This document shows, piece after piece, positions 29,735 to 48,893 of a DNA stretch of 64,000 bases. Positions within the stretch are counted from its first letter, which is position 1; each line of letters starts with the position of its first letter. Position numbers and translations under genes: made by a program. Location: NCBI GenBank assembly GCA_934654475.1, contig CAKUFZ010000002.1:86-64085 (forward strand), in the 5' to 3' direction. The notes under the pieces are model-generated. The model had not been told where the DNA came from. It searched no databases and was given only the letters and a program-made list of their open reading frames with translations. The DNA comes from an uncultured Coriobacteriales bacterium (GTDB lineage Bacteria > Actinomycetota > Coriobacteriia > Coriobacteriales > UMGS124).

Positions 29735-31630
29735 CTACCTGTACTTTAAGCCTCCAAGCAAACCCTTCTTGAAGCGCTTGACCTCATTCATGAAGGGCTC
29801 GTACCCATGCTCTACGCCCAGTTTTGCCATCTCGTAGCCTCGCTCGATAGCCCCGTCGCCGGGATTGCGCATTGTTTCGTCGTATTCAAGCAAGAGAGTC
29901 ATCTGAGCAAGGTCGAGATTGTCCGAATCCCCTTGTTCGATTTGTTTGAGACTTGCATTGGCATCTGAACCCAACGCTCGGCGCGCCCACTGGCGAGAAG
30001 CGCTCTCGTTTTCACATACAAGAACAAGCATGGCAGCAGTCACGGGGTCGGGACGCATGGACCAAGATTCCTCCAGGAACCGCACTGACCTCCTCTTGTA
30101 TTCTGCCGACAACGAGGAATCTTCTCGAGACAGTTGGGCGCTGAGGCGAAAGTAGCAGTAGCCTTTTGTAAACGCGCATGCAGCAAGGGTATCGTCCAGC
30201 CCGTCAAGATCTTCGGACTTCAAAGTGTGCTGCAAATCACCGATGTTGTCGTTCTTGATTCGCTTAATCCAGCTTGTCAGCTCGTTGGCACGCACAATGG
30301 CGGGTTCATCTGCTCCGATGCCCTTTTCTGCAAGAAGCAGTATCTTCGACGCGCCCATGAATATCCTGAATAATGACGGGTCGAGCGTGCCACCACGACG
30401 GAAAGCAACGTCGAGCCAGAATGACATTGGGTCGTACTGCTCTGCGCCATCCATATTAGAGGTATACTGCATTACTGCCTTGCTTATCCTGTCTCCTTGG
30501 CCGTTGTATGCCTCAAACCACAAATCTTCATCGATATCAGTATGTCTGACGGGGGCCAAATCAAGACGAGCAAGCTTGTACATAACCTTCGATGTGAAAT
30601 TATCCGAAAGGCCGAACATTGCGCCGTGCGCGAGCAGCCTACCCATCACGATGCTGGCCTTTGTGTCACTCCGAGGCACACCGACACCGAACAGATAGAT
30701 TGCAGCAACGCGAACGTATTCTTGCCAGTCCACGGTATCTTCTGTTGTCTCAAGGTCGATTGGTGCTTCAAGCAGGGCCTGATATCGCGCATTGGCACCT
30801 CGAAGAAACCTTGCATCTTCCAGAAGACCCTGGTCATCTCCTCCATTTGCGACGGCTTTGCGAAGCAACTCAACACCCTGTTGGCACTCGCTTTCATTTG
30901 CCTGCCTGTTGATGAGACAGCAGCCGTATTCAATCATGGCATCGACGTTGCCCGCGTCGGCGGCTTGCCGGAACCAGTTTTCGGCAAGGATGTACGACGA
31001 TGTTATGTCTTCACCCGGTTTGGCATAGTTACCGGATTGGTAATGAGCCCCCAAGCCGAGCATGGCCAGACCCCTTGAGCCGTTTTCGTCCTCCATAGTC
31101 GCGGCCTTCATGAGCAGCTCGTAGCCACGCTCCATGTCTGGCTCGACGGGATAGGGACTTTGGCTCGTTAGAATCATGCCATACTTGTAGCAAGCCCAAA
31201 CGCTGCCCATCTCAACGCCGCGCTCCAACAGGCGGCAGCCCTCGTCCGGGTTTCGCTCAACGCCCCAACCGTCAAAATAGCATAGGGCGAGGTAGTAGCA
31301 TGCCGCACCGACGTGCCAGCGCTCATTTTCGGATGCAGGCTCAGCCTCGCTGGCTCGGCGCAAATGCGTTATATAGGCGTTCTTATCAACGGGAATCTCT
31401 GAGTAAAACCCGTCGAACATAAATGCATACCTGTAGTTGCCCTCAATCGATCCCTTCTGCGCAGCAAGGCCCAACAAGCAACGAACTTTTGCCAAATCTT
31501 GCCCAATCAAGCCCTCGTCGTATTGGCTCTTTATGGAGCGCGCCTCAGAGAGCAGCTTGTCTGGTTCCATGTTTTCATGTTCGGCCTTAAACCCATGCAG
31601 GTTGTATACGTCGAGGTATGAGTCATCCAT
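29735..31630 (-). CDS. Sel1-like (TPR-class) repeat protein; candidate immunity or adaptor protein of the upstream toxin
   Basis: 631 aa with several Sel1-type repeats (AACYYLALCYFDGWGVERNPDEGCRLLERGVEMGSVWACYKYG; AENWFRQAADAGNVDAMIEYGCCL; AAIYLFGVGVPRS). It starts 11 nt after the toxin-like gene. Confidence 0.7.
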   Translation of the reverse strand: MDDSYLDVYNLHGFKAEHENMEPDKLLSEARSIKSQYDEGLIGQDLAKVRCLLGLAAQKGSIEGNYRYAFMFDGFYSEIPVDKNAYITHLRRASEAEPASENERWHVGAACYYLALCYFDGWGVERNPDEGCRLLERGVEMGSVWACYKYGMILTSQSPYPVEPDMERGYELLMKAATMEDENGSRGLAMLGLGAHYQSGNYAKPGEDITSSYILAENWFRQAADAGNVDAMIEYGCCLINRQANESECQQGVELLRKAVANGGDDQGLLEDARFLRGANARYQALLEAPIDLETTEDTVDWQEYVRVAAIYLFGVGVPRSDTKASIVMGRLLAHGAMFGLSDNFTSKVMYKLARLDLAPVRHTDIDEDLWFEAYNGQGDRISKAVMQYTSNMDGAEQYDPMSFWLDVAFRRGGTLDPSLFRIFMGASKILLLAEKGIGADEPAIVRANELTSWIKRIKNDNIGDLQHTLKSEDLDGLDDTLAACAFTKGYCYFRLSAQLSREDSSLSAEYKRRSVRFLEESWSMRPDPVTAAMLVLVCENESASRQWARRALGSDANASLKQIEQGDSDNLDLAQMTLLLEYDETMRNPGDGAIERGYEMAKLGVEHGYEPFMNEVKRFKKGLLGGLKYR

Positions 31631-31641: not shown

Positions 31642-33252
31642 TTACAATTTGGACCCGAGGCTTATCTGACCGGGGAAAGAGATAATGCTTACTATCTTGC
31701 TATCGGGCAACATAATGTGGACTTTCGGGACAGGTTCGCCGGCCATGGCAACGCCAAGCACCTTGTTCGTTGGGACTTCGATGATGTGTGGCGTGCCTTC
31801 GCGCATGACCTTCCACGGTCCGGGGCACAAGTTGGTGAGTCCGATGTTCCCGCGCCCGTCGCCCACGCATCGAGCTATCACTTTTGCTGGGTCGCCTGGC
31901 GAGGTCAAAACGCCACCCTTCCCGAGGGGAAGGATGCGGTTGCCAATCATGGTGTCGAGGATGATGTCGTGTTTCTGCGCTACATCTGATAACTTCTTGA
32001 TGATCTCGTCGCGCGTCCCTTCCGCAGAGATGAGATCGCTATGGGGAATATTGCCGTGAATAATAGACGGTATAAGCTGCATGGTCCCGTTGTGACAATC
32101 GTGCGGCGTCAATCCCTCGGCTTTCAGAAACTCTTTAACATCGCTTTGAGTCTGGAACCAATCGTACCCCCTATCCTGCATGAATGCCACAGCACGCGCT
32201 GCAAGGTCTGGCGACAGGCAGGATTTCCCAGAAGAGGAATCAAGCATCTGTTTGTATAGCTGCCTATAGTTCTCCCCACGGTCGCCTGTTACCTTGTCAA
32301 GCTTGAACTCACCTTTAGCAAGGTTCCCCGAGAATACAAGGTACCCGTCTTGAAACCGTATGTCTATCGGGCCGTACTGTTGCTCGATTTGCCCCCAGGT
32401 AAGACCCTCAGGGTTGGACTGCGAGGGCACAAAGTTACGGTCGGGTGACCACGTTCCGCTATACGTTGAGTCTGGGCTGTCGCAAGGGTTGCCGGAAGGA
32501 TCAATCCATGTTCCACCCGTTTTGGGCATGTGCGGCGTGATTCCCAAAGACGCGCGAACAAGGTCGAGTTCCTGCGAAGACATGGATGCAATCTGGTCGG
32601 CATAGCCTTGAATGACGCCGCCCACACGCAGCTTGTCCACATCGCTTATATTGCTTGAGATAGCCGGCGACGACACACCGGCCATCTCAAGCGCCGCGCT
32701 CCCCAGACCCCCGGGATGGTTGAGGGCCGAGGTAAGCGGGCTGACTAGGGAGAGCTGCAATGGAGTTCCATCGCGAGAAGCCTCTTGGGTGATTCCAGAA
32801 GAGGGTGTCTCGCCCATCCTAATCGCTGGGGTGTCCATCAATCCGGCGCCCTCGCGAATTTTCTCAACTGCGTGCTCAAGCGTCGCGCACCCTTCACTGC
32901 GCAAGGACTCGCACCGAGATTTCAAAGAAGACATATTGCTTTCATATGTATGGGAAGCACCACTAAGAGAAGCGATTTCATTGTAGAGCTGCCTCGATGA
33001 GGAGCGAAGGCCATCGATCTGCCCTCTAATCTTGTCTCGCTCGTCTGCATCATCGGCCTTATCAAGCTTTCTTTCTAGCTCACGACATGCCGTCTCAGCG
33101 CTTTCGATCCTCTTCTCTAGTCCATCGATTGCCAATTGGGCCTCATGAAGAAGCTCTTTATTGGGTTGCAAGGGCGAGAAGTCAACGCCCCTCAATCCCT
33201 TCGCAAGCTCCTCCATCGCATCAAGACCGTCGAATACAATCGTTGTCCCCAT
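31642..33252 (-). CDS. Polymorphic-toxin-like protein: N-terminal coiled coil, central HNH/EndoVII WHH-like nuclease module (variant), extra C-terminal domain
   Basis: 536 aa. Residues 1-140 are helical/coiled. The segment IRFQDGYLVFSGNLAKGEFKLDKVTGDRGENY...GLTPHDCHNGTMQLIPSIIHGNIPHSD resembles the gyPdF...tgdR..D(F/Y)...tWHH...tMqLVp..iH....H layout of WHH-type toxin nucleases, with PHD in place of WHH. About 115 uncharacterised residues follow. Confidence 0.45.
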   Translation of the reverse strand: MGTTIVFDGLDAMEELAKGLRGVDFSPLQPNKELLHEAQLAIDGLEKRIESAETACRELERKLDKADDADERDKIRGQIDGLRSSSRQLYNEIASLSGASHTYESNMSSLKSRCESLRSEGCATLEHAVEKIREGAGLMDTPAIRMGETPSSGITQEASRDGTPLQLSLVSPLTSALNHPGGLGSAALEMAGVSSPAISSNISDVDKLRVGGVIQGYADQIASMSSQELDLVRASLGITPHMPKTGGTWIDPSGNPCDSPDSTYSGTWSPDRNFVPSQSNPEGLTWGQIEQQYGPIDIRFQDGYLVFSGNLAKGEFKLDKVTGDRGENYRQLYKQMLDSSSGKSCLSPDLAARAVAFMQDRGYDWFQTQSDVKEFLKAEGLTPHDCHNGTMQLIPSIIHGNIPHSDLISAEGTRDEIIKKLSDVAQKHDIILDTMIGNRILPLGKGGVLTSPGDPAKVIARCVGDGRGNIGLTNLCPGPWKVMREGTPHIIEVPTNKVLGVAMAGEPVPKVHIMLPDSKIVSIISFPGQISLGSKL

Positions 33253-33283: not shown

Positions 33284-33562
33284 TTAGCAGCTTTCCAGAA
33301 TGTGTCCTCCTTCTTCAAAGCAATCGGCGGAATAGAGCAGTTGCTTCTCGACTGAACCCGCATCGGGAAGTGCGTTCATAATGTTATCGAGGTAGTTTTT
33401 AAGAGCAGCAAGTGCGACAAGACCTTCCCTAAAAGGCATTACAGTCTCCGCGGCATCCACAAGCCCTTTTGCAACACTACAGGTTGATTCGAGATCCTTG
33501 GCGAATTTGTCTACGGTTTGGGCGACCTCACGGATACCTTCGACATCCCACGTTATGCTCAT
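33284..33562 (-). CDS. Small (92 aa) predicted helical protein, unknown family
   Basis: The ATG at 33562 is preceded by a strong RBS, aaggagg, 6 nt upstream. The sequence MSITWDVEGIREVAQTVDKFAKDLES... has helix-favouring composition. No WxG motif is present. Confidence 0.6.
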   Translation of the reverse strand: MSITWDVEGIREVAQTVDKFAKDLESTCSVAKGLVDAAETVMPFREGLVALAALKNYLDNIMNALPDAGSVEKQLLYSADCFEEGGHILESC

Positions 33563-33601: not shown

Positions 33602-33871
33602 CTATGCGATGCCGGCACCCGCCTCCAGAGCGTCGGCTGCCTTGTTCAAATTCACGCACGCCGCCTCTGTCAAATCGGTTGACGACTTAATGGTGAGGTC
33701 GATTTGGTCGCAGACTTCTAGAATTTTGTCATAAGCAGGACATTCAAACATGTCCCCCAACCCCTCGGCAGCTTGCTTGAAATTTTTTGCCATATCGGAA
33801 ATCTCGGGCATTATCGTCGAGAGTGCCGAGGCAAGGTCGCGTATTTCTTGCGGCTCAACTGTAGCTGGCAT
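33602..33871 (-). CDS. Small (89 aa) helical protein, WXG100-superfamily/EspC-like by size and composition
   Basis: The ATG at 33871 is preceded by ggag. The sequence is MPATVEPQEIRDLASALSTIMPEISDMAKNFKQAAEGLGD...LNKAADALEAGAGIA. It resembles a helix-turn-helix hairpin with a central G-rich turn. The family call is inference. Confidence 0.5.
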   Translation of the reverse strand: MPATVEPQEIRDLASALSTIMPEISDMAKNFKQAAEGLGDMFECPAYDKILEVCDQIDLTIKSSTDLTEAACVNLNKAADALEAGAGIA

Positions 33872-34094
33872 ATTGATGCTCCGTTCTATCGTCAACGCCT
33901 GTTCCGTAACGTTCCAAAATCTGGCAGAACCCCTCGGTCTGTTCTCTTGCCTCCTCAATCAACTCAAGCATCGGCTTCACCTTGTTTTCTTGGAATTGCT
34001 CCGCATACCTATCCTGCCAAGCTGCTTCCGCTTTACCCCAAATGTTTCGGATGTCCCCCTCCAGGCCCAAAAGCTCTTCACCTACCAAAGCCAT
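33855..34094 (-). CDS. Small (79 aa) helical protein overlapping both neighbours
   Basis: The ATG at 34094 lies 10 nt upstream of the stop of the FtsK-like ATPase gene, and the gene end overlaps the next start by 17 nt. The sequence is LGLEGDIRNIWGKAEAAWQDRYAEQF.... Confidence 0.5.
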   Translation of the reverse strand: MALVGEELLGLEGDIRNIWGKAEAAWQDRYAEQFQENKVKPMLELIEEAREQTEGFCQILERYGTGVDDRTEHQYASYS

Positions 34095-37000
34095 TCCGAC
34101 CCATCCCTTTCGTCTTGACCGGTTGGTGAAAAGCTGCCCGGGAGTGCGGCAGATTCTTTGGAATCCGGCTCAGTCTCTAAGGGTTTTGCCACCTCGAGAG
34201 GTATGGTCTTGGCCACAGTCTCAACTACGTAAGGTCTGAAGAAAAACTCATGGCCGCTTGGGGTGTGATACACCATCTTGATTTTTGCCTCTTCGGGTTG
34301 GAGCGACGACGCGTTTGATTGCATGCCGATGCTCACCAGCTTCATTCGATCGGCATGCGTCGCAAAACGATGAGCAAAAAGTTCCGCCATATCCAATCCC
34401 CTTGCACCGAGAACTTTGTTGAGGTTTGGAACGGACGTAGAGAGCAAGCATATATGGACGTTGTTCAATGGCCCCCATTGAATCACACGGGCTATCAGCT
34501 CGCGTGCATCATCGGGCGAAGTCTTCGCTTCTTCGCTCTGACCTTTCTGGTGGTTTTCATATCGCACCATTGCCGCGCTTAAGGTGCTAACGCTGCTCGG
34601 CTGTTTTTTCTGCATTGACCTCTCAAACTCATACTGTGCCCTACTCATTTGCTGGCTCAGCTGCTCAAGACCCAAAACAACGATGAGCACGGGTGTTGAG
34701 GAGGCGAGATTACCCTCTTCAGCCCGACGGAAGAGATTGGCAATGGATGTTAAGTCGGTCATCTCTTCATAGTTGGGGAATACATCTCGAAGCGTCTGCC
34801 ATTTTGTTTGCGCAAAGCGCCAAGTCGGGTCGTTCTCAGGGGCAACGACAACGACACGATATCCAAGGCCCTGCTTCGAACAGGCTCCGATGATGGTCGT
34901 CTCCACCAAGTCGAAGGCAAGGTTCATCTCCGGATCAAGCACAAAGATGTTTTGTCCAATATTGCTGTTCAACGCGATTCGCAGGGTGGGATCAACAAAA
35001 CTCGACTTTGATCCTATAGGAACAAGACGAGAGCCCATGATATCAGTAGTCATTCGCTGACAATACTCGGTCCATGTAGGAGCGTCACGGCGAGTCGCAT
35101 CAAGATATTCAAATCTTTCATCCCAAGCTTTGCATGCATCGCCCAAACTTGCCCTGATCCTTTCGTTCGATGCGCACATCGCTTTGTCTTCCACGCATCT
35201 GGTGACACAGCGTATAGGCTTATGCCCGCCATGTTGGATGTAAGCATCGCCCTTCCCTAGAATCTCGAGGTCGGAAGAGTAAGTGGACGAAACCATCGCA
35301 CAAGGCTCTTGCCCGTTGGTGCCCCATGCCAAAAGCACGCGATTCGTCATGTTCGTCTGTACTGTCTTTTCGCCAAGCGCTTGAAGATTTGGGCCGTCTG
35401 TAAGACTCTGGTCGGCGATAAGGACATGCATGCCGTAAGCGCGGCATTCCTTAATCAGGTTCTGAAACTTGCGACTGTAGTTTGAGCTGTCATCTTTATT
35501 TAAGCGTGTGGCAGCCATAACGGCAGCCTGAGCATGAAACTCGTCAATTACCACCAAGAGGTACCGCATGTGCTCCAAGCCCAATTCGGGGTGCTTGGCA
35601 ACATAATAGTTGTATTCATTGATATCCCTGGCACTGGGGACGTTCTCCACCATGAGGGTCTGGCGATTTTTCATCTCGACATCATAAAGACGGTCGATGG
35701 CCACCTTTATGAAGTCCTCGGATGTATCGATTGCGACAAGTCCTATATGCGGGAAGCGCTGGTCAACATCCCTCAGACCCGCAAAATCGCTGCGCTTGTA
35801 ATCAATAATCCAGATTTCAAGGTCATCTGGAGAGTAGTGCGTGCAGGCAGCCTCGATGGCATTACGCAAGAAATACGTCTTACCGGACCCCGTCGTTCCC
35901 GTCACAATGCCATGTACATTCCCGCCCAGGTCAAAGCGCAACATGACGGCATTACCAAGCTCGTCGACAGCCACGGGCAGCTCTATGGCCTCTTCGATCT
36001 TGCTTACCTGCACATGAGCCAAATCAACAACTTCCGTCGGGTTGGCGGCATCACGCTTTTCCTGCGCCTTCTGCACGCTCAGCACAAGCTCGTCTGAAGT
36101 AAGGGCGGAATTGATGGGGTTGATGGGCTTGCAGCCACGGCCGGGGATATCGATGAGGTATCGTGCGCGTCCAGCTTGCGGATCCCAGCTCTCTGTGATG
36201 TTCGTCATGCTTTCGCGCAAAGCTCGCAGTCTTTCGTCAAACTTCTCGTCACCTCGCAGAGCGCTGCCGCACGAGACGAGCACCTGCACTCCGAGCCGCT
36301 TGCCGTCTCTGACGAACGATTCGATGAGGTCGAGGGTCCTAGTTCCAAAATGCTTGTTGGATAAGTCGTTTATCACAACAATCGTCTGCGGAATCGCCTT
36401 CACTGCATTGGCCCGCGCGTTGTATTTTCGCAGGCTTCCAAAAGACGCAATGGCAGGGCCAAGGTCTCCTGTGCGGTTCTCGAGAACGGTATTCATCCTT
36501 CCCGTATCTTGCTCAGTCGAGGCGACCTTAATGATGGTGTCCTCCCGGCGCTCGATACGGGATGACAGGTCGGCAAGCTTTCCCAAAGAGAGGCCGGCGT
36601 TTGTGGGGTCAAGCCAGTAAACCTCGAGGCCGCCCAAGGGCGTGCAACGGATGGCCGTGGACACAATGGCTCGCATCCAGGCGAGTGCCGCCTCTTTGTC
36701 GTTGTCTACCGTGAACCAGCATCCCTGGAGGTTGTCCCAATCAAACGAATAGGGTACGTAAAGGTCGACCCCAGCACCTTTTGCCTCGACCATGCCTATC
36801 GGGGTATACCGAGGAAACTCTGTGACTTGCCTGATTGCACCGAAGTCGGCGTTGCCCAGCACTTGCACGCGATTGGCAATCTCGGCACGACATTGATAAC
36901 CTATACGCTCGGACTCAGTATTTGATTCCAACCGCGCCCTAAGGTGTCGCCTGTCCTCCTCATACTTTGTCTCCAGGTTGCGAAGCTCCCTTGCAATGGC

Positions 37001-37675
37001 CTGAGATGCCGATGTGTCAATCGCTTGGGCATCCGCACGCCGCCGCGCGTCCCTCTCCGCCTCGGCATGCTTTGCGCTCCATTCGTTTTGCAGCACACGT
37101 TGGCGCTTCTCCGCATCGGCTTGCATCGAACGCTCATCTCGATCGATGCGTTTCTGCTCATCTTGCACCATAGCCTTCAGCAAAGAGCACGCCTCATCAC
37201 GCTGCATTGTCCCTTTGAGGTGGAAGAGGCGCTTGAGCCACGTCAAAAAAGATATGTCAGCCATTTGAGCCAGAAGGACTTCAAGCTCTGAATCGGAGGT
37301 GTTTCTTGCGTCTTGAATATGTTTCGGCCATATGGGGGTGTTCGCAAGGTCACCCGGGATGCGTGCAAGGACCCTGGAACAGCGGTCTCGACGATCTTGC
37401 ACGGCACGACGCTCACTCTCAATCTCTGTTGAGAGTACTTGGAGACGAGCGTTGTATTCCCTATCAATCTCGGCAACGCCCTCAACCTGAGGATGCGCCA
37501 GCCGAGCGGCAAGGCTCGCCTCGATGCACTCTGCCTCGCGCTTGCGTCTCATGCAGTCGCTGCGCCTCTCCTCGTATTCCCTTGTGAGGCAATCGAGCCT
37601 TAACTGTCCGTCGTCTGACGCCGTTGCAAAGCCATCGATGCGCGAGGCAATCATCTCGTAGAACTCATCGACCAT
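34082..37675 (-). CDS. Atypical FtsK/SpoIIIE-family ATPase: coiled-coil N-terminus, three P-loop-like modules with only the middle one intact, no TM segment
   Basis: 1197 aa. The middle module has Walker A GIVTGTTGSGKTYF, Walker B YLLVVIDEFH and an FtsK-type RAYGMHVLIADQS. The flanking modules keep beta-strand/Walker-B-like strings (TIVVINDLS; VLIVVLGLEQL) but have no GxxGxGK[ST]. The first roughly 300 aa are E/R/A-rich coiled coil. I saw no hydrophobic helix. Confidence 0.75.
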   Translation of the reverse strand: MVDEFYEMIASRIDGFATASDDGQLRLDCLTREYEERRSDCMRRKREAECIEASLAARLAHPQVEGVAEIDREYNARLQVLSTEIESERRAVQDRRDRCSRVLARIPGDLANTPIWPKHIQDARNTSDSELEVLLAQMADISFLTWLKRLFHLKGTMQRDEACSLLKAMVQDEQKRIDRDERSMQADAEKRQRVLQNEWSAKHAEAERDARRRADAQAIDTSASQAIARELRNLETKYEEDRRHLRARLESNTESERIGYQCRAEIANRVQVLGNADFGAIRQVTEFPRYTPIGMVEAKGAGVDLYVPYSFDWDNLQGCWFTVDNDKEAALAWMRAIVSTAIRCTPLGGLEVYWLDPTNAGLSLGKLADLSSRIERREDTIIKVASTEQDTGRMNTVLENRTGDLGPAIASFGSLRKYNARANAVKAIPQTIVVINDLSNKHFGTRTLDLIESFVRDGKRLGVQVLVSCGSALRGDEKFDERLRALRESMTNITESWDPQAGRARYLIDIPGRGCKPINPINSALTSDELVLSVQKAQEKRDAANPTEVVDLAHVQVSKIEEAIELPVAVDELGNAVMLRFDLGGNVHGIVTGTTGSGKTYFLRNAIEAACTHYSPDDLEIWIIDYKRSDFAGLRDVDQRFPHIGLVAIDTSEDFIKVAIDRLYDVEMKNRQTLMVENVPSARDINEYNYYVAKHPELGLEHMRYLLVVIDEFHAQAAVMAATRLNKDDSSNYSRKFQNLIKECRAYGMHVLIADQSLTDGPNLQALGEKTVQTNMTNRVLLAWGTNGQEPCAMVSSTYSSDLEILGKGDAYIQHGGHKPIRCVTRCVEDKAMCASNERIRASLGDACKAWDERFEYLDATRRDAPTWTEYCQRMTTDIMGSRLVPIGSKSSFVDPTLRIALNSNIGQNIFVLDPEMNLAFDLVETTIIGACSKQGLGYRVVVVAPENDPTWRFAQTKWQTLRDVFPNYEEMTDLTSIANLFRRAEEGNLASSTPVLIVVLGLEQLSQQMSRAQYEFERSMQKKQPSSVSTLSAAMVRYENHQKGQSEEAKTSPDDARELIARVIQWGPLNNVHICLLSTSVPNLNKVLGARGLDMAELFAHRFATHADRMKLVSIGMQSNASSLQPEEAKIKMVYHTPSGHEFFFRPYVVETVAKTIPLEVAKPLETEPDSKESAALPGSFSPTGQDERDGSEWLW

Positions 37676-37708: not shown

Positions 37709-38317
37709 TTAAAGCTCGAGTCCAAGCACGTCGAAGCCACCGTTTGCCAGAAAGACCAGGAGAAGCATTTTTGCGATCTTGGCAAGAACGGCACCCGCTA
37801 TGAATGCAAGCGGAGACTTGCTGAGCCTTCCGCAAACAAGGCCGATGGCATCGGACGCATTGCCTGAGATGAACGATCCGGCAAAGGCGCACGTGAAGAC
37901 GCCGAGACCCCCGCATCCTTCAAGTCGCGCAAGCCAACGCATGTCCGGGCGCACGATCCGCGTCGCTTTGCCGGCCCAATAGCTCGTCACTTCGCCCAGG
38001 CCCGCCCCCAGCCCCGCCGCAAGCGAAACGAAGACAGGGTCAAGAACCAACGACATTTGCACGGTGACAGCCCCGGAAGGCGACAACCCGAACACGCCGC
38101 TGTTCAAAACAAAGCAAGCGACTGCCGTAGCCACATAGCCCAGCGAGGCAAACTGCGCAATCTCATCGCGATAAACAAAGGCGAGAACGGAGGCCACGAC
38201 CATCAGGACAAGAGTGGCGATTCCAAGCAGCACTGGACGATGGCGCTCGATTCTCGTACCTTCATGCTGAATGTCACCATGTGAGTGATTGTTCTGGCCG
38301 GCGCACATCATCTCCAT
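37709..38317 (-). CDS. YqaA/VTT (DedA-related) family membrane protein
   Basis: 202 aa and multi-pass. The segment LAAGLGAGLGEVTSYWAGK resembles the G-x-x-x-G-x-x-x-Y-x-x-G[KR] signature of YqaA-like proteins. Confidence 0.45.
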   Translation of the reverse strand: MEMMCAGQNNHSHGDIQHEGTRIERHRPVLLGIATLVLMVVASVLAFVYRDEIAQFASLGYVATAVACFVLNSGVFGLSPSGAVTVQMSLVLDPVFVSLAAGLGAGLGEVTSYWAGKATRIVRPDMRWLARLEGCGGLGVFTCAFAGSFISGNASDAIGLVCGRLSKSPLAFIAGAVLAKIAKMLLLVFLANGGFDVLGLEL

Positions 38318-38952
38318 CCATGCTCCTGAGAGTAGATGACGAGCAGGTCTAGGTTGGCGCGCTCCACGTCGGTGAAGTTGGGCTCGGTCACGCCCTCGAT
38401 GGGTTGATACCAGGGTCGAGCGTCAAAATACGCGCGATACTTGCCGCCTGCGAAGGGATACCCATATCGTGCATACAGCTCGTTGATTGCCAGGGTTGTC
38501 GTGCGCTCGTCGAAACCCTCAATGTCGGCCCTGTCGAGATACACCCAGTTGGACGGTAGGATGTACCCTTCGGCCTGCGCCTGTGCAATCGCGTCACCAT
38601 TGGGCGTTGAGGTACTGACAATAGGAAGGGACGTATCTGCATTGGCATACTCGTCGGACACGTCTGAATACTGCGCGGTCTCATCCGAATAGGTCGGCTC
38701 TTCTTGAGTGCTTGAAACATCCGATTCGACCGACTCGCTCGAAACAGGTTCGTAACTGCCGTCTAAAAGGATGGAACCCAATACTTCGCTTGAAGCAAAC
38801 TGGTTGGACATGGGCGACAACAGAAACGCCAAAAACACCGCCCCGCCAAGAAGCCCGCCGAAAATCGCCAATCCCCCACTCGGAGTTTTGGGCACGTTGA
38901 AACTGTTCGCGTTGCCAGCCATAGTGGAGCCTCCATTGTTTGTGCGTGACAT
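38308..38952 (-). CDS. Membrane-anchored YARHG-domain protein
   Basis: 214 aa with one TM segment (LAIFGGLLGGAVFLAFLL) and an acidic S/E/T-rich linker. The C-terminal YARHG signature is YILPSNWVYLDRADIEGFDERTTTLAINELYARYGYPFAGGKYRAYFDARPWYQP. Confidence 0.7.
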   Translation of the reverse strand: MSRTNNGGSTMAGNANSFNVPKTPSGGLAIFGGLLGGAVFLAFLLSPMSNQFASSEVLGSILLDGSYEPVSSESVESDVSSTQEEPTYSDETAQYSDVSDEYANADTSLPIVSTSTPNGDAIAQAQAEGYILPSNWVYLDRADIEGFDERTTTLAINELYARYGYPFAGGKYRAYFDARPWYQPIEGVTEPNFTDVERANLDLLVIYSQEHGWR

Positions 38953-38963: not shown

Positions 38964-41900
38964 CTATGAATCAAGCAAGCTCACGATGACGACGATTCCC
39001 AGTACCAGCGCGAGAATGCCGGCTGCAATGGTAAGAATGCCCCCGACGATAAGGATGACGAATACGGCAGCAAGGCAAAAAACAGGTGGCAAAAGAACCA
39101 TGGCGAGCCAGAAGTGGGGCCCACACCATGATTTGCTGTTGGCATACCAGAGCCCGACAAGCCAAAGCAAAAAACCGATTACCATACCAGTTGCAAATCG
39201 GTTTGAATAGCTGGTGCTTGTCTCAATCCACTCCCAGACACCCAGTGCAATGAGCCCACCGGCAAGCATCATCGGCAAGATGGTGGACATACCCCACATG
39301 GCCCAATGGCCCGAATTATGCAATCCTTGACTCTCATGGAGATTCTTGTCAAGCAACGCCACAGTGGAACTGTACCCATAAGAGACGACAGGCAGAGAGG
39401 CATTTTGGTCGGCCAGACGCATATAGAATGGCGACGTTTTCTCTCCGTAGGCCCTGATATCCTCATTATATGTTTGACTGAGTTGTTTGAGATCCTTGTC
39501 CAACCCCCTGTATTTGCCGGAAAGGCGTTGCCTGCCAAGGTAATAAAAACTCGCATAGGCAAAGTATGTCACAGCTGACACGAACGTACCAAATGCAAGG
39601 ACATAATCGAAGCCCTCGGGCAAACCAAGCAAGACAAGGAACTCAAAGAGCGAGGGGGCCATAACCGTCCCGCATACGGCAAACGCCACCAAAAGCAAAA
39701 TGCTACCGAGCAGGTACCCCGCCTTGGACTCGCACTGCTCCCTCATGCGCATCTGGAGCTCCATGATGATCTTCTCAAAGTTCTTGTCCCGAGAATCGCC
39801 TTGCGAAGCCTCAACGAGACACACGCCATCCCATTCCGCCGTGCCAGTCATATCCCTCCTGGAGGCGGTGAAGATATCGCGGACGAAGCCACGGGGGACG
39901 GTCTCCCCATAGAATCGCGCACAGAAAAACCCGTCGTCCTCGCTCACGGTGACGTTCTTCTCCGAAGAAACGCCGTAATAGTGCCGCAGAGGAAGTTCTT
40001 CCAAATTGGCTTCGATTCTTTGTACGCATGTATGGGCCGTCTGCTCAAACCCGTCATGCGCCATTTGGGCCACGGATGAGCCGAGGCCCTTGGTTATGGT
40101 GTCGCAACTCCAGTGAAGCCTTGTGGGTGCGGAGGAACCTTCTGCCATCCTGAGATACATGTCAGCATGGCGGGCAGTCCAGACCCAGGGTCCAATGGGG
40201 CCATAATTGATGTAGAACTCCCGCACGACGTCCTTGCTCTCGACAAGCCCCTCAAAGAAGCACAGCGCCTCGGTGGCAAGTACGAGCAGTTCGTGTCCGC
40301 GCGTCAAATCGTCGCTTGGAGCAGAATCGTTAGGGTAGGCTTTGAGCATCCCGAGGAGGGAATCGGCGTCGGTGAACCTGTACGCCACGGACAGCATTGA
40401 CCTGTAAGCATCTTTAGACGCGATGGTTTGATAGAACCTGTACGGCGTGCTGGAGCAAAGCTCAAAGAGCTTGTTTGCATTCTGGCACATCGTTAGCGAA
40501 TCCGTGTAGTTGGCGCTAAAAGTATTCTTGAACAGTAGGCGCGCAAACGAGGCGTCACCGCCATCATCCAGCTGGGCGGCGACCTTCTCAATGCCCCGCA
40601 GCTTCTCGATTACATACCTTTTGCCATCCGAAAGCTGGTCTTCAGTTTGCCAAGGAGAGAGGATCGCCTCGACGCCTGAGCCTTGCTGTTCGGCCGCCCA
40701 AGAGAGCAACCCACTTGCGAGCAGGTCTTTTGCGAGCAGCTCTTTAGACACTTCAGGGTTGTCGATGTTTGCTATAAGGTTTGTGAAAGAAACGTCCTTG
40801 CCTTCCCAACAGAGCAGGTATCTGTTACCGGACAGGTACCAAATGGATTTTGCCAAACCCAAATTTGAGGACTCGCTGCTGTTACGATAAGTGTCCAATG
40901 CATCGGCGGCATCGATTTGCCCGTCGCCGACAAAACTTTGTGAAATATAACCTCGTGAAAACTGCCTGAGAGCGACGGACCAATTGTTCGACAAGGCCTC
41001 TGCAAGCTCTGCGAAGTTCGTATACGTCTTTCCCTCGAACTGATAAGACCATCCCGTTTCCCCATCGTCCGGGTCGACCCATGTAATGGATTCCGGCTTA
41101 TCAACCCAGCTCATAACGGCTTCGAATCCAAGGCGCTTCTTATGATCCCTATACGTCAGACCATATATGAGGCGCCCAAGATACTTGTCTTCGTCGCTGG
41201 TCGGCTGAAAAGGCACGTCACGAGAACCGCTCAGGGCAATACGCTGAAGTGCGAGTTGGTCGTTGGCCTCAATAAGACTTTGATAAGGATGTTTGCCATC
41301 GTTGTAGAGCGTCCAAATCGTATAGCCAAACGCATACCAATCGCTTTCCGGCTGAACTGGCACACCGGGAATGGAGTATCCCACTGTCGCACGCTGCGTT
41401 GTCGTATAGCCGAACTTCTGTCCCTCGGCGCCACCTTCGACAAAGGAAGAGATGTTGAAATCGCCCAGAACAACGCAACCGTCGTACACGAAAAGGTTTG
41501 ACGGTTTTACGTCACGGTGCACAATATTGCGCTCGTGCAAAAAATGCAGAGCGGTTGCCGCGTCTGAGATGACGCAACGCTTGAGATAGCCCTTCTCAAG
41601 GGGCTTTTCATCGAGTCTGCTACATATTGGCATGACTGCGACGTATGCCAGCTCCTCATGCCATCCTGGTCTATCGCTTGTTTGGACGTTGATGGCCTTG
41701 CTCTCAAACGCATAGATCGGCATGAGGTGTGTGGACTGGCACCCGCCGTTTGACGGGTCGCCGGTTATGTCGAGAAGCTCCTTGATGACGCGTTGGTAAT
41801 CTGAGTTATGCCTGGCGTCTCGATCTCTAAGGGAGATTTTAGCCGCATACTCATTGCCTTCGTTGTCTCTTGCGCCAAAGACGCGAGCATAGCCGCCCGA

Positions 41901-42098
41901 ACCGATTGATGTATCGAAATCAATCGTATAGCTCATCTGTGTTGAAGCATTACTCACAACAACGGTTTGATTGGGGTCGGCCTCAAAACAAAAGCCCTCG
42001 TCTGCCAAGGCGGCCGTCTGGTTTGACTGCGCCGCAGTTGCTGAATAGCGCATCGCCGAGGTGCCAGACTGAACCATTGGGACGGTCTCAGATGCCAT
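38964..42098 (-). CDS. Giant Ser/Thr protein kinase with a large middle region and a polytopic C-terminal membrane domain
   Basis: The start is taken at the ATG at 42098, 8 nt after aaggag and 1 nt after the PP2C stop (the ORF track starts at 42140). The Hanks kinase motifs are IGSGGYARVFGA, YAAKI, HRDVKPSN, DFN (in place of DFG) and QPESDWYAFG. The C-terminal roughly 300 aa hold about 7-8 hydrophobic helices. Confidence 0.85.
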   Translation of the reverse strand: MASETVPMVQSGTSAMRYSATAAQSNQTAALADEGFCFEADPNQTVVVSNASTQMSYTIDFDTSIGSGGYARVFGARDNEGNEYAAKISLRDRDARHNSDYQRVIKELLDITGDPSNGGCQSTHLMPIYAFESKAINVQTSDRPGWHEELAYVAVMPICSRLDEKPLEKGYLKRCVISDAATALHFLHERNIVHRDVKPSNLFVYDGCVVLGDFNISSFVEGGAEGQKFGYTTTQRATVGYSIPGVPVQPESDWYAFGYTIWTLYNDGKHPYQSLIEANDQLALQRIALSGSRDVPFQPTSDEDKYLGRLIYGLTYRDHKKRLGFEAVMSWVDKPESITWVDPDDGETGWSYQFEGKTYTNFAELAEALSNNWSVALRQFSRGYISQSFVGDGQIDAADALDTYRNSSESSNLGLAKSIWYLSGNRYLLCWEGKDVSFTNLIANIDNPEVSKELLAKDLLASGLLSWAAEQQGSGVEAILSPWQTEDQLSDGKRYVIEKLRGIEKVAAQLDDGGDASFARLLFKNTFSANYTDSLTMCQNANKLFELCSSTPYRFYQTIASKDAYRSMLSVAYRFTDADSLLGMLKAYPNDSAPSDDLTRGHELLVLATEALCFFEGLVESKDVVREFYINYGPIGPWVWTARHADMYLRMAEGSSAPTRLHWSCDTITKGLGSSVAQMAHDGFEQTAHTCVQRIEANLEELPLRHYYGVSSEKNVTVSEDDGFFCARFYGETVPRGFVRDIFTASRRDMTGTAEWDGVCLVEASQGDSRDKNFEKIIMELQMRMREQCESKAGYLLGSILLLVAFAVCGTVMAPSLFEFLVLLGLPEGFDYVLAFGTFVSAVTYFAYASFYYLGRQRLSGKYRGLDKDLKQLSQTYNEDIRAYGEKTSPFYMRLADQNASLPVVSYGYSSTVALLDKNLHESQGLHNSGHWAMWGMSTILPMMLAGGLIALGVWEWIETSTSYSNRFATGMVIGFLLWLVGLWYANSKSWCGPHFWLAMVLLPPVFCLAAVFVILIVGGILTIAAGILALVLGIVVIVSLLDS

Positions 42099-42099
42099 C

Positions 42100-42900
42100 C
42101 TATGACTCCTTTTCATCGATTGGGGTCGAAATCTCGACAAGCATCACACTTATGTTGTCATCTGAACCGCCAACCAAAGCAGCATTAAACAGACTTACCG
42201 CCTTAGTCTGCAGGTCGACGTCGGCACCTTTGAGCATCTCTTCAATCAGCTGATCAGGCACGCCCTCGGTCAGACCGTCTGAGCAGAGGAGAAAGATGTC
42301 GTTTTCAAACACAGGCCATGCCTTTGAAATATCGACGATGTCCCACCCCGGGCCAAGTCCGAGTGCGCGCAGGATAACATGAGCTTGATTGGTTTGCGCC
42401 CACTCAATCTGCTCTTGAGGCGCATGGATGCTTTCGAGCTGTTGCACAACTGAATGGTCGCCCGTCTGCCGCGCAAGGAAACCGTTACGCATCCGATACA
42501 CGCGTGAATCCCCGGCGTGGAATGTAACGAATTCTCCCTTGGCAATCGCAATTCCAGCCGTGGTCGTTGCCATGGATGTCCCACACCTCCATGACGCGGA
42601 TGTCGCACTCATCTCGCGACTCGTCTGAGAGAGCACCGCGCAAGCCGCCTCGGCCAGACCCCGCGCATCACACCCGGCGTCGACTTCAAACCCCGCGAGA
42701 GCCTGAGCAGCGAGAGAAGATGCCTCGGCACCATGCCCTCCCGCGCTCACCCCGTCGAACACGGCCAGAAGGGTGGGTTCCTCGACCTCGATGCAGCACG
42801 ACCCTGAGGCAAGAACTCCCCCGCCTATGAAAAGCCTGTCTTCGTTCGTTGACTTCACCGCGCCTTTGTCGGTAACGGCGGCGACCTGTATCACAGCCAT
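42100..42900 (-). CDS. PP2C-family Ser/Thr protein phosphatase
   Basis: 266 aa with TDKGAVKSTNEDR, LAVFDGVSAGGHGAEAS, LCSDGLTEGV and GGSDDNISVMLVE. Confidence 0.88.
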   Translation of the reverse strand: MAVIQVAAVTDKGAVKSTNEDRLFIGGGVLASGSCCIEVEEPTLLAVFDGVSAGGHGAEASSLAAQALAGFEVDAGCDARGLAEAACAVLSQTSREMSATSASWRCGTSMATTTAGIAIAKGEFVTFHAGDSRVYRMRNGFLARQTGDHSVVQQLESIHAPQEQIEWAQTNQAHVILRALGLGPGWDIVDISKAWPVFENDIFLLCSDGLTEGVPDQLIEEMLKGADVDLQTKAVSLFNAALVGGSDDNISVMLVEISTPIDEKES

Positions 42901-44873
42901 GCGGAAGCTCCCGTCTCCGTGGAATACACAATATGCCCTCCCTGAGCAGAGGCGTAAATCGTCGCGCCCTGCGGCACTCGCATATCAAATAGGTACTCGG
43001 CAAGCGTGTTGAGGTATTCGGACTCGATGTAGTTGGCGATGCCTCGACCGCCCTTCTCTTTGACATCGGTGGAAAGCGAGGCCTGAACGATTTGGTCGAA
43101 GCAGGTCTGGTCAACCTCGACATGTACACCCTGCTGCTTGAATACGGCATGGTTGACCTGGTCGACTTTTTGGCGGGCAATGAGGGCAGCAGAGGCGTCG
43201 TCGATGTAGTCGAACACAACGACGTTGTTGCCGATGCGACCCAGAAACTCCGGCTTAAACGTCGCCTTCATCGCGGCCATTACTTTGTCGCGCACCGCAT
43301 CGTATGGCTCACCGGGACCGATAAGCGTCTGGTGGTCCACCACATGGCGACCCGACGCGTCATATACCTCGCGTGAGAAACCGATATTGCTCGTAAAGAA
43401 AATGAGCGTCTCGCTGAAATAGACCGTTGTGCCCTGCCCGTCGGTCATACGCCCGTCTTCCAATATTTGCAGGAACTTGTCCATGATGCTGGGAGAAGCC
43501 TTCTCCACCTCATCGAACAGCACGACTGAGAAGGGGTTTGCACGCACGGCGTTGGTCAGTTGACCGCCTTGCGAGTAGCCCACATACCCCGGCGGTGCAC
43601 CGAACAGCTTTTGGTCGGAATTGTCCCCCTGATACTCAGACATGTCGAAACGCAGACAGCTCCGCTCGTCGCCAAAAAGCATCTCAGTGACTGCTTTCAC
43701 TATCTCGGTCTTGCCGGTACCTGTTGGACCGCTGAGGAAGACGACGCCTTTAGGCTTGCCGCCGCCAGAATGCGTGGCCCCCGACAAACCCAAGACGGAT
43801 CGCTTGAGAACCGACACGACGGCATCGACGGCCTGGTCTTGCCCTTTGACTCGTCTACGAATGACATCTCCGGGGTCATGCTCGAGCTTCTCGAGCATCG
43901 TAGCCCACTTGTTTTCCTTGAGACCGTATTTATACACGTCAACCAGTGCAGCGAGATCGGAGGAACCCTGGGTATCGCGGCCGTGCATGCGCCTAAGCTC
44001 GTCAAGCTCCCGCAAGGTCATGGCGTCGGTCATGTCGACGAAACGCTCCGTTTCCGACTTCTCCCCTACGACGAAACCCTCGGTTGGCAGGCTGGGCGGA
44101 ATCATCGTCTGCACATAGAGCTCGCGCGTCGCCCTGTCAGGGTTGGGCACTGTGACAACACGCATGTTGGGATTGCCGTTTACAAACCAATCAGGCAGGT
44201 CATTGCGGCGGCTTGCAACCAGAATGAGGGTATTGCGATCGCTGGACGACCCATCGGGCGAACATACGCGCAAGGCATCGCTTGCCGCAACAAACAGGTT
44301 AGTGAAGAACGCCGTTTCGTCTGGGTCGAGATGCGAAGGCGAGGTGAGAACGCGCGACGCCATGTCGACGACAACGGCAACAGGTTTAGCGACCGGGTGG
44401 CCCGGCTTGTTTCCTCCCAGACGAGGGCCGCCTCCCCCGTCGAGCTGCAACGGGCTTGCAAGGAGCGCACGTATGAGGCGTGAGTCTTGAACAAGGTCGC
44501 TCACCTGGCTGGATTGCGTCTGACGGGCATGCCCAAACGAGTTGACCCTGTCGGATTCCGCCTGCATATCAGCCGCCGCACGGCCTGCTGCCGCAAGATA
44601 GCGCTCGACATCAGATTCCTGGAACATATTGGTGAAACGACGCAACGGGTCGTAATACACGAGCTGATACTCGCCCGATGCGGCATCCTCCGAAAAGACC
44701 GCATGGAGCAGCTCGTTGAGTGTCAAGAAGCCTGCCTGTGCCACGTCGTCAATCGCGTCGCCACCGTCCCAAACAGGATACAGGTCGTTGACGTTGCCCT
44801 CAAAGAGAAAGAGGCTCTTGATGCCCTTGAAGTTGCGCAGCTCGCGCTGCCACTGTTGCCTCTGAATGCTCAC
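42891..44873 (-). CDS. AAA+ ATPase with a ClpA/ClpB D2-like module and a degenerate N-terminal module
   Basis: 660 aa. The C-terminal half carries VKGQDQAV..FLSGPTGTGKTE (Walker A), VVLFDEVEKA (Walker B), PPGYVGY and FTSN. The N-terminal roughly 300 aa lack a P-loop. The GTG start overlaps the upstream stop (GTGA) and is preceded by gggagg. Confidence 0.75.
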   Translation of the reverse strand: MSIQRQQWQRELRNFKGIKSLFLFEGNVNDLYPVWDGGDAIDDVAQAGFLTLNELLHAVFSEDAASGEYQLVYYDPLRRFTNMFQESDVERYLAAAGRAAADMQAESDRVNSFGHARQTQSSQVSDLVQDSRLIRALLASPLQLDGGGGPRLGGNKPGHPVAKPVAVVVDMASRVLTSPSHLDPDETAFFTNLFVAASDALRVCSPDGSSSDRNTLILVASRRNDLPDWFVNGNPNMRVVTVPNPDRATRELYVQTMIPPSLPTEGFVVGEKSETERFVDMTDAMTLRELDELRRMHGRDTQGSSDLAALVDVYKYGLKENKWATMLEKLEHDPGDVIRRRVKGQDQAVDAVVSVLKRSVLGLSGATHSGGGKPKGVVFLSGPTGTGKTEIVKAVTEMLFGDERSCLRFDMSEYQGDNSDQKLFGAPPGYVGYSQGGQLTNAVRANPFSVVLFDEVEKASPSIMDKFLQILEDGRMTDGQGTTVYFSETLIFFTSNIGFSREVYDASGRHVVDHQTLIGPGEPYDAVRDKVMAAMKATFKPEFLGRIGNNVVVFDYIDDASAALIARQKVDQVNHAVFKQQGVHVEVDQTCFDQIVQASLSTDVKEKGGRGIANYIESEYLNTLAEYLFDMRVPQGATIYASAQGGHIVYSTETGASAWL

Positions 44874-45472
44874 ACTGCCTCCCTCGCATGCATGTCCGAC
44901 GGGCGGTCGTGGATTCCGACCGAGATTGCACGGTTCTCAAACACGAAGTTTTGGACCCATCGCCCCTGTCTCATGTACTCCGCATACTTCCGCCGCATCT
45001 TCTCGTTGAGGAAGTTGACGCGTTGGTTATCTGAACCGCGCAAGGCAAGCCCAGCCACGTTGCGCGCGGCGATATAGGGCCCGTCTATAAGAACGTCAAC
45101 GCATGTTCGCAGGCGTAGCCAATTCGCATGGGACAGACAGCGTTGAGCTTCTTCGAGCGTGTAGCCCGTATACAAAAGGACATCGTCATAGACGCTGCGG
45201 ACGGCCTCCAGGCAATCGAGGAGCTCGTCGGGTTGCTCAAGGGGGTCTCCGCCGGTGAGCGTAAGCTCGTGGCAACCATAGGACTCGCCGACATCCAGCA
45301 GGTAGCGAGCGAGGCCGCCCGGTGGCATTTCCTGCGCCTCGGTAGATGTCCACAGCTCGGGATTTGCGCACTCCGCACAACGCTTGGAACAGCCCGCCGT
45401 CCATATCACGGCGCGCCTCCCCGGCCCCAACGTCTCGACAGGGTAGAGAATCCTATCCACGCGCATCGTCAA
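44870..45472 (-). CDS. NrdG/PflA-like radical-SAM activating-enzyme homolog (orphan)
   Basis: 200 aa with ETLGPGRRAVIWTAGCSKRCAECANPELW (CX3CX2C directly before N-P-E-x-W) and LTLTGGDPLEQ, as in anaerobic RNR or glycyl-radical activases. No NrdD or glycyl-radical enzyme is in the window. Confidence 0.65.
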   Translation of the reverse strand: MTMRVDRILYPVETLGPGRRAVIWTAGCSKRCAECANPELWTSTEAQEMPPGGLARYLLDVGESYGCHELTLTGGDPLEQPDELLDCLEAVRSVYDDVLLYTGYTLEEAQRCLSHANWLRLRTCVDVLIDGPYIAARNVAGLALRGSDNQRVNFLNEKMRRKYAEYMRQGRWVQNFVFENRAISVGIHDRPSDMHAREAV

Positions 45473-48659: not shown

Positions 48660-48842
48660 TTATTTACCGACGCAATAGAGCATGCACTTGCTACCGCACG
48701 GCGTTCCGCCACCGGGAACAGAATAAGGCTGACAAATGGTGCTGCACGAGGCGAAACCACTCATTCCAAGCTGGCTAACCATTCCGTAGAAATGCCCAGC
48801 AGAGCCACACGTGCCGTAGGAAGCTTCACGAACGATTTCCAT
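48660..48842 (-). CDS. Candidate RiPP precursor peptide with six cysteines
   Basis: 60 aa from the ATG at 48842 (the ORF track uses the GTG at 48851); aggtg lies 6 nt upstream of the ATG. The sequence is MEIVREASYGTCGSAGHFYGMVSQLGMSGFASCSTICQPYSVPGGGTPCGSKCMLYCVGK. It starts 51 nt downstream of the SPASM maturase stop. Confidence 0.6.
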   Translation of the reverse strand: MEIVREASYGTCGSAGHFYGMVSQLGMSGFASCSTICQPYSVPGGGTPCGSKCMLYCVGK

Positions 48843-48893
48843 AATTTTCACCTTTCGAGCATGCCTTCGAATAAGACTTCTTTGCCGACCCGC

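Follow-up and report, generated by a model that had tools for sequence, protein, structure and literature searches.

A soluble EssC-type ATPase and its conserved gene cluster in an uncultured Coriobacteriales bacterium: a possible type VII-like toxin export module

What can a motor ATPase of the kind used in type VII secretion systems (T7SS) do when it carries no membrane anchor? The T7SS ATPases that have been studied are all membrane proteins, yet a branch of about 85 representative protein clusters has either lost the anchor or never had one. A member of this branch is encoded on the minus strand of a 64,000-nucleotide stretch of DNA (the window) from an uncultured Coriobacteriales bacterium, contig CAKUFZ010000002.1. 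Judged from its sequence, the protein belongs to that soluble branch of the EssC-type family which has a long coiled coil in place of FHA domains and transmembrane (TM) helices. Its gene lies in a conserved, low-GC, operon-like cluster of 14 genes, a gene set that appears to be undescribed. It is this locus that looks new, with its membrane kinase and its YARHG, VTT, ClpB-like and radical-SAM genes.

The open reading frame (ORF) of the ATPase was found exactly where the initial annotation had placed it. It comprises 3594 nucleotides, begins with ATG, and has GGAAAGG, a plausible ribosome-binding site, 5' of the start. Its parts are as follows.

34082..37675, minus strand: EssC-like ATPase ORF, 1197 amino acids (aa), no TM helix
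36821..37675, minus strand: N-terminal helical/coiled-coil head (aa 1-285), from the helices of the AlphaFold2 (AF2) model
36041..36820, minus strand: module 1 (aa 286-545), degenerate, FtsK-like; P-loop position VDNDKEAA, Walker-B-like strand TIVVINDLS
35171..36040, minus strand: module 2 (aa 546-835), an FtsK/SpoIIIE ATPase domain predicted to be active and most like EccC/EssC D1
35876..35899, minus strand: Walker A GTTGSGKT (aa 593-600); G593, G596, G598 and K599 invariant in 88 sequences
35540..35560, minus strand: Walker B LLVVIDE (aa 706-712); D711 and E712 invariant
34181..35170, minus strand: module 3 (aa 836-1165), degenerate, FtsK-like; P-loop position LDPEMNLA, strand VLIVVLGLEQL
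34082..34180, minus strand: disordered C-terminal tail with the conserved SEWLW at its end; predicted local distance difference test score (pLDDT) below 50 for aa 1168-1197

The protein was first described as having three FtsK/RecA-like modules with only one intact P-loop, and both parts of that description hold. Each of the motifs then listed (GTTGSGKT, LLVVIDEF, RAYGMHVLIADQS, TIVVINDLS and VLIVVLGLEQL) is located in the ATPase; GTTGSGKT is the sole Walker A of the whole protein, and LLVVIDEF at aa 706-713 is its one canonical Walker B. Pfam detects the central domain only (FtsK_SpoIIIE, PF01580, aa 566-758, E 2.5e-15), and the threefold architecture emerges from profile comparison and structure prediction. 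With 88-sequence profiles, hhalign aligns module 1 with module 2 in register at a probability of 95% (E 3e-8), placing the P-loop of module 2 opposite VDNDKEAA and its Walker B strand opposite TIVVINDLS. Modules 2 and 3 are collinear over 224 columns, a weak match (E 2e-3). Deep profiles are needed for this comparison, since a 4-sequence alignment gave no signal between modules; an AF2 model from 4 sequences was likewise unusable (pLDDT 38.5), and the prediction was repeated with 88. The resulting model has a mean pLDDT of 85.5 and a predicted TM-score (pTM) of 0.69, and shows an identical order of strands and helices three times over. Among its Foldseek matches the cytoplasmic domain of Thermomonospora curvata EccC, with three ATPases, ranks first (4nh0; 1009 columns, E 4e-25), followed by D2-D3 fragments of EccC and EssC, and then by FtsK motors and TcpA. 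Module 3 additionally carries a disordered insert at aa 1027-1048 and ends in the family motif FRPY.

The loss of the flanking P-loops extends well beyond this gene. The Walker A motif and the DE pair of Walker B in module 2 are kept in 88 of 88 family members, while a full Walker A is found in none of the 88 in either module 1 or module 3, which upholds the proposal that the flanking modules lack a functional P-loop after alignment. The central module alone also retains the other invariant residues of the catalytic site. The degeneracy is family-wide, an old, selected feature and not decay in a single gene. Giant relatives of 2100-3075 aa carry three to ten Walker A motifs (P0077, P0041-P0072). 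P0077 has three consecutive active FtsK domains behind TM helices, and matches to the module 1 and module 3 profiles cap this run; the degenerate modules thus behave as conserved end caps in a motor of variable length.

The protein was also said to lack TM segments. A Kyte-Doolittle scan with a 19-residue window and the usual threshold of 1.6 bears this out, for the maximum in the ATPase is 1.19 and the same scan detects TM helices in its positive controls, namely the kinase, the YARHG protein and the VTT protein encoded alongside. Pfam gave no FHA match in the ATPase. The predicted coiled-coil head is likewise recovered, with a length of about 270 aa: the first 285 residues are rich in E, R and A, and in the AF2 model built on the 88-sequence alignment aa 4-272 form long helices (aa 4-59, 66-104, 159-213 and 222-272; pLDDT about 65-87) joined by a cluster of short helices. 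These short helices form a conserved tip at aa ~105-158 (SF.TWLKRL.HLKGTM.RDEAC...), invariant in a homolog of 54% identity. The tip occupies the position of a TM hairpin in TM-bearing relatives, and the hairpin of P0005, P0006, P0008 and P0009 is gapped in the query; the tip is a candidate docking element. Within it, aa 106-143 (37246-37360, minus strand) follow a pattern seen family-wide in the alignment, P..L...P...LL..I.D.SF....KR.....G. At the other end of the protein, SEWLW is invariant even in the 54%-identity homolog; its conservation could reflect a docking motif or a mere dual-coding constraint from the overlap with the next gene, s1.

Placement within the superfamily was examined with a family profile run against all PDB sequences. 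EccC (4nh0) scored 1e-51, EccC5 1e-41 and YukB/EssC 1e-40, and the same search gave FtsK at 4e-22, TcpA at 8e-17 and HerA at 7e-07 or weaker. That EccC and EssC outrank FtsK, TcpA and HerA favours a secretion-type assignment, and supports the earlier view of the protein as EssC/EccC-like and not a DNA-pumping FtsK. The NCBIfam EccCa, EssC and EccCb models match it far under their cut-offs, however, and the curated scores are not reached (74.4 versus 509 bits for TIGR03924, EccCa; 59.1 versus 778 bits for TIGR03928, EssC). Module 2 covers positions 400-663 of the EccCa model, up to its end, and its likeness is greatest to EccC D1. Sequence similarity thus favours equating module 2 with D1, and module 1 may correspond to the DUF domain of EccC. 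An alternative numbering, with module 1 as D1, fits the three-on-three Foldseek alignment and the scheme of Bell et al., who number the active domain as the D2 homolog (PMC11090510). The module 1 profile gave no significant match to the DUF region of canonical FHA-type EssC proteins.

The initial annotation implied that this ATPase and its architecture were unique, and neither is the case. An exhaustive HMMER search over 1.84 billion representatives returned 14,838 matches. They include a family of about 85 proteins that are 1000-1360 aa long and have their only P-loop near the middle, and most of these ~85 representative clusters have no TM helix. Close homologs are few: 5.8 billion clustered proteins contain three, with identities of 97, 86 and 54%, and the next relatives, P0033-P0039, stand at 23-28%. 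GTDB-representative genomes were scanned without yielding a close homolog; the one match, of 23% identity, came from the metagenome-assembled genome (MAG) of an Escarpia endosymbiont. The output of a word-indexed search with a 22-sequence profile consisted largely of canonical EssC-like proteins, and the true family was missed.

The same layout was reported by Bell et al. 2024 in eLife (PMC11090510, section 10), who described EssC-homologous FtsK-like ATPases with three ATPase domains, of which the central one alone is predicted to be active, and with an N-terminal coiled coil, over 200 residues long, in place of FHA domains and TM helices (PMC11090510). According to these authors, the architecture was touched on earlier by Anantharaman, Iyer and Aravind in 2012 (PMC11090510). 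The neighbours in their loci include two WXG100 genes (one without the WxG motif) and a coiled-coil-nuclease fusion; Bell et al. note that such neighbours imply secretion, yet consider a different mechanism likely as TM domains are absent (PMC11090510). Their loci are linked to TerY-P triads and to type III-A CoCoNuT, and they treat the triad as accessory, not core (PMC11090510). In the H. pylori pan-genome, WxG and FtsK genes are likewise found with a TerY-P triad and an LHH nuclease (PMC4978471). The architecture of the protein is therefore already described computationally, and the family is experimentally uncharacterised. Of the two things that would together have told against the first description, a known family and a defined role for it, the family exists, and an experimentally defined role does not.

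The query resembles the type described by Bell et al. in its long N-terminal coiled coil, its lack of TM helices and FHA domains, and its three ATPase-like domains with the central one alone predicted active; a kinase and a PP2C phosphatase lie nearby, and a pair of small WXG100-like candidates and a coiled-coil-nuclease candidate are adjacent, followed by a further protein. Two relatives in TerY-P contexts, P0048 (E 2e-47, profile positions 325-1150) and P0056 (E 1e-38, positions 8-1051), are homologous to the query across the modules, and both lie beside Pkinase-VWA-PP2C genes; their identity to the query is only 17-20%. TM-less members in loci L014 and L015 adjoin Pkinase-VWA-PP2C triads, that of L015 being placed after three TerD genes. 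The query locus differs in that, beside the kinase and PP2C, Pfam finds no vWA (TerY) domain in the scanned neighbours, hence no TerY-P triad, and in having no McrBC/CoCoNuT genes. Its host, too, would be of another kind, a high-GC Gram-positive of the Eggerthellaceae type to judge by flanking genes and GC content. Its kinase has a polytopic TM domain where that of the described type has a zinc ribbon, and the nuclease-like domain is HNH/EndoVII-like, not D-ExK. The YARHG, VTT/DedA, ClpB-like AAA+, radical-SAM activase, Zn-ribbon/FHA and 473-aa coiled-coil proteins are extra.

A more distant, collinear clade of ~1300-aa proteins (P0005, P0006, P0008, P0009), one member of which is annotated from a Chthoniobacter MAG, carries, within its N-terminal coiled coil, a TM hairpin of two helices, at the point where the query has its conserved soluble tip. 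All three modules are collinear with those of the query, and the landmarks are shared: module 1 has PxG..DP..G, the centre has the P-loop and DEF, and FRPY stands at the C-terminus. So are the partners, a ~70-aa W..W.D protein and a WXG100 protein, the operons reading WXG100, ~190 aa, 70 aa, ATPase. These loci are minimal and lack the kinase, PP2C and YARHG genes of the query. That TM-bearing relatives occur in WXG100 operons suggests a membrane-embedded secretion ATPase branch beside the soluble one.

The remaining 13 genes of the cluster are listed in the order of transcription; s1 follows the ATPase.

46494..47915, minus strand: 473-aa coiled-coil protein without family match, first gene of the cluster; L012 ortholog at 30% identity
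45453..46490, minus strand: 345-aa protein with N-terminal zinc ribbon (Zn-ribbon matches), low-complexity linker and FHA-like domain
44870..45472, minus strand: small radical-SAM activase-like protein (Fer4_12; PF13353, E 2.8e-28), kept in L001, L003 and L012
42891..44873, minus strand: ClpB/ClpV-D2-like AAA+ ATPase (AAA_2, E 6.6e-50; ClpB and TssH models sub-threshold)
42100..42900, minus strand: PP2C phosphatase, 266 aa (PF13672; Stp1/IreP-type, E 5.5e-35)
38964..42140, minus strand: Ser/Thr kinase with a long linker and C-terminal polytopic TM region (Pkinase, E 7e-20)
38308..38952, minus strand: YARHG-domain protein, 214 aa, one N-terminal TM helix at aa 25-49 (PF13308, E 1.2e-9)
37709..38317, minus strand: VTT/DedA-like polytopic membrane protein, 202 aa (PF09335, E 2.3e-7, just under the cut-off; synteny kept)
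33855..34094, minus strand: s1, 79-aa helical protein with a W-x8-W-Q-D motif, resembling ~70-aa proteins beside related ATPases
33602..33871, minus strand: s2, 89 aa, a candidate WXG100-like helical hairpin (full-length match to Pfam WXG100 at E 1.3e-3, below gathering score)
33284..33562, minus strand: s3, 92-aa WXG100-like helical candidate (WXG100 E 0.19, DUF6507 E 0.04; weak)
31642..33252, minus strand: 536-aa protein with a coiled-coil N-terminus and a C-terminal HNH/EndoVII (WHH-like) motif, PHDCHNGTMQLIPSIIH
29735..31630, minus strand: 631-aa Sel1-repeat protein (Pfam Sel1, E 1.3e-14), kept after the 536-aa gene

The genes are tightly packed, and their order is the same in all readable loci: 473-aa coiled-coil protein, Zn-ribbon/FHA protein, Fer4_12 radical-SAM activase, ClpB-like AAA_2 protein, PP2C, polytopic kinase, YARHG, VTT/DedA-like protein, ATPase, three small proteins of 65-100 aa and a protein of 350-540 aa. 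In the closer loci the Sel1 gene comes next, and the partner set is kept down to 27% identity. The cluster occurs on a handful of metagenomic contigs and in one NCBI assembly record, a related locus being present on the 3.38-Mb record of assembly GCA_900169505.1. In the window, GC content is 0.48-0.59 across positions 28000-52000 and 0.62-0.66 in the flanks; the low-GC island holds the whole 14-gene cluster and suggests horizontal acquisition. Promoter and terminator scans gave results at chance level. In the literature searched, no paper was found that joins YARHG with FtsK or treats such a system in Eggerthella.

Upstream of the ATPase, the 345-aa protein has 36% identity to a 259-aa protein of L012 that itself has a weak FHA Pfam match, and the pattern GR...SR.H...N..GD can be read directly from its sequence. 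The ClpB-like protein has a single D2-type AAA+ domain, and its ~330 N-terminal residues (listed as 42891-43880, minus strand) match no family. The kinase ORF is 1058 aa long when read from a TTG (relatives are called at 1044 aa), and its TM segments fall within aa 805-1058. The literature describes YARHG as an extracellular domain that is associated with kinases and possibly binds peptidoglycan (PMC3355149). The kinase, YARHG and VTT genes also precede the ATPase immediately in the relatives that have 54% and 27% identity. More generally, membrane-protein genes stand directly 5' of the ATPase in the window, L001, L012 and L013, the last being a TM-less ATPase of another lineage preceded by a polytopic LRR membrane protein. 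Membrane coupling of the soluble ATPase through the polytopic kinase, VTT/DedA-like and YARHG proteins is thus plausible.

Downstream, the stop of the ATPase overlaps the ATG of s1 by 13 nucleotides (34082-34094), and the two genes are translationally coupled. The W..W.D motif of s1 is common to the ~70-aa proteins beside TM-bearing and TerY-P-type ATPases (L001_s1, L011_70 and L015_75 were compared); BLAST support for this likeness is weak (E 0.002 and 0.014, for the L001 ortholog of s1). The L001 ortholog of s2 has weak local similarity to a bona fide WXG100 protein of L010, and s3 has weak similarity to one of L011, while the WxG motif itself is absent from both s2 and s3. Among 12 such small proteins, WXG100 is the commonest Pfam match. 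When a small-protein profile was run against the PDB, designed helical bundles dominated the output, and the WXG100 proteins HP0062, EsxA, ESAT-6 and CFP-10 came up only at E 0.02-0.4.

The 536-aa protein is probably a cargo or toxin. Its coiled-coil N-terminus is clear, and the WHH match (E 1e-3) falls below the cut-off. A match to EAD9 (E 7.6e-4) on the same protein was judged a coiled-coil artefact and set aside. The Sel1 protein may act in immunity or as an adaptor. Three small proteins come after the ATPase of L014, then, in the slot of the 536-aa protein, a clear Colicin-DNase/WHH toxin and a SUKH immunity gene, together a classical polymorphic-toxin cassette; a Sel1 protein comes later.

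For the cluster as a whole, the best explanation, about as likely as not, is a phospho-regulated, T7SS-like toxin export module in which the soluble motor docks on membrane partners. In such a module the ATPase would form a hexamer, by analogy with FtsK-family ATPases, in which the middle ring hydrolyses ATP and the two dead rings would provide a scaffold and docking sites for substrate or regulator, as the D2/D3 and DUF domains do in EccC. The coiled-coil head would dock the motor on a membrane complex of the kinase TM domain and the VTT and YARHG proteins, and the kinase, PP2C and FHA protein would gate assembly or firing through threonine phosphorylation. The three small proteins s1-s3 may together make up the signal that targets the nuclease-like cargo, the 536-aa protein; this would be exported against competitors, the Sel1 protein protecting the producer.

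Several lines of evidence favour export of this kind. The closest solved structures and sequences are those of T7SS EccC/EssC/TsxC proteins, which share the tandem FtsK-like modules, and T7SS likewise have WXG100-type partners and toxin substrates with helical N-termini and small helper proteins. The full-length WXG100 match of s2 and the W..W.D likeness of s1, weak as they are, point the same way, as do the toxin and SUKH cassette in L014 and the membrane-protein genes directly upstream of the ATPase, one of them encoding a domain described as extracellular (PMC3355149). T7SS subtypes c-j, as defined by Garrett, Higginson and Palmer in 2024, often have kinase, PPM phosphatase, FHA and AAA+ accessories (PMC11217815), and the kinase, PP2C, FHA and AAA+ genes of the cluster correspond to these.

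There are differences that weigh on the other side. All the described T7SS ATPases are membrane-bound (PMC11217815), whereas that of the cluster has no TM helix and a coiled-coil head instead of N-terminal FHA domains, and it carries one P-loop where T7SS ATPases have two or three. None of EccB/D/E, EssA/B or EsaA is encoded, no ubiquitin-like TsxB/YukD component was recognised in the cluster, and no subtype of c-j matches the gene set (PMC11217815). By TM scan, the TerY-P-type loci L014 and L015 show few or no membrane proteins. The nuclease call on the 536-aa protein is an 18-residue, sub-threshold match with PHD in place of the expected WHH, and a homolog search for this protein found two orthologs only, too few to show polymorphism of the cargo.

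A more specific form of the export proposal, which we put forward tentatively and think somewhat doubtful, is that the cluster is an undescribed T7SS-like subtype of Coriobacteriia whose soluble motor is recruited on demand, through phosphothreonine, an FHA adaptor and the coiled-coil head, to a separate translocon. Recruitment would depend on threonine phosphorylation read by the Zn-ribbon/FHA adaptor, together with the head of the motor, and the translocon would consist of the polytopic Ser/Thr kinase, the DedA/VTT-family protein and the peptidoglycan-binding YARHG protein. The ClpB-like AAA+ protein and the radical-SAM enzyme may prepare or modify the cargo. If true, this would be the first separation of a T7SS motor from its channel, in a host group of gut Coriobacteriia-type Actinomycetota.

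The strongest competing explanation places the whole process inside the producing cell. A soluble hexamer that is never at the membrane would activate the nuclease there, as part of an intracellular conflict or defence module, once a phosphorylation signal passed through the kinase, PP2C and FHA protein, for instance upon phage attack or envelope damage; the ATPase would unfold the nuclease or extract it from helical chaperones or a Sel1 inhibitor, with an outcome like abortive infection. We consider this possible, though on the unlikely side. The confirmed lack of TM helices and the low-GC island speak for it, and homologs lie within TerY-P triads and, by the literature, CoCoNuT type IV restriction loci, for which a non-canonical mechanism has been suggested (PMC11090510). 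PADLOC gives matches at the sub-family level, of the ATPase to mad8, SspH and HerA and of the kinase to mad6, MkoA and PD-T4-6; these amount to generic domain similarity, however, and no complete known defence system is present. An intracellular role also sits poorly with the three membrane proteins directly upstream of the ATPase, one bearing a presumably extracellular YARHG domain, with the WXG100 genes of the TM-bearing sister clade, and with the L014 toxin and SUKH cassette, which is typical of exported polymorphic toxins (PMC3113570).

It is very improbable that the protein serves chromosome segregation or conjugative transfer as a DNA translocase like FtsK/SpoIIIE, SftA, TraB or TcpA. 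The superfamily and the fold of module 2 are shared, the Pfam domain is FtsK_SpoIIIE, and FtsK motors and TcpA are significant matches in structure and sequence. SftA of Bacillus is a soluble FtsK-like translocase. The matches to EccC and EssC are nevertheless stronger, by about 20-30 orders of magnitude, than those to FtsK and TcpA, which have a single motor domain with a DNA-binding gamma domain or TM anchors and occur in another genomic context, whereas the query has two degenerate modules, a coiled-coil head and no FtsK gamma/winged-helix match in Pfam. Its conserved partners are WXG100-like proteins and a toxin-like gene, and the cluster has no relaxase, replication or partition genes; the DNA-translocase explanation was rejected on these grounds. 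Membership in MADS, the methylation-associated defence system, in which the ATPase would be Mad8 and the kinase Mad6 (PADLOC mad8 E 8.6e-18 and mad6 E 1.7e-23; NCBIfam antiphage_MADS6 E 2.7e-14 for the kinase), is hardly credible and effectively refuted by missing components, there being no methyltransferase or other Mad protein among the ten flanking proteins scanned, while antiphage_MADS6 reaches 52.6 bits against a cut-off of 460 and the mad8 model, a single FtsK-like domain of 314 positions, covers module 2 only.

The main value of the locus is as a tractable test of how a TM-less EssC-type motor functions. It is a favourable case in that it combines the soluble motor with three candidate membrane partners, a complete kinase/phosphatase/FHA switch, an apparent toxin and a candidate immunity gene. 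Should a nuclease toxin be exported, the system would be an interbacterial weapon in a probable gut group of the Actinomycetota, and T7SS motor and channel would be separable; should there be no export, it would represent a new cytoplasmic use of an EssC-type machine.

Beyond the cluster itself, several minor features of the surroundings can be recorded. Beside it, on the minus strand at 48660-52271, a LytTR-type regulator (51393-52271) lies upstream of a radical-SAM/SPASM gene (48894-50207), which is followed directly by a 63-aa ORF with 8 cysteines (48660-48851); these genes look like a small cassette of the ribosomally synthesised and post-translationally modified peptide (RiPP) type. Radical-SAM genes of three types recur beside related ATPase loci, namely the Fer4_12 activase, an rSAM-SPASM gene and a PqqD and rSAM pair (L015 13090-14598; L017 4816-6225; window 44870-45472). 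In L003, where the ATPase is 97% identical, a DDE transposase comes after the cluster (18106-19128), with a different neighbourhood of LysR, cytochrome c3 and molybdopterin oxidoreductase genes; in the window (27945-29525) and in L007, an AAA-ATPase_like/PDDEXK_9 gene lies beyond the cluster instead.

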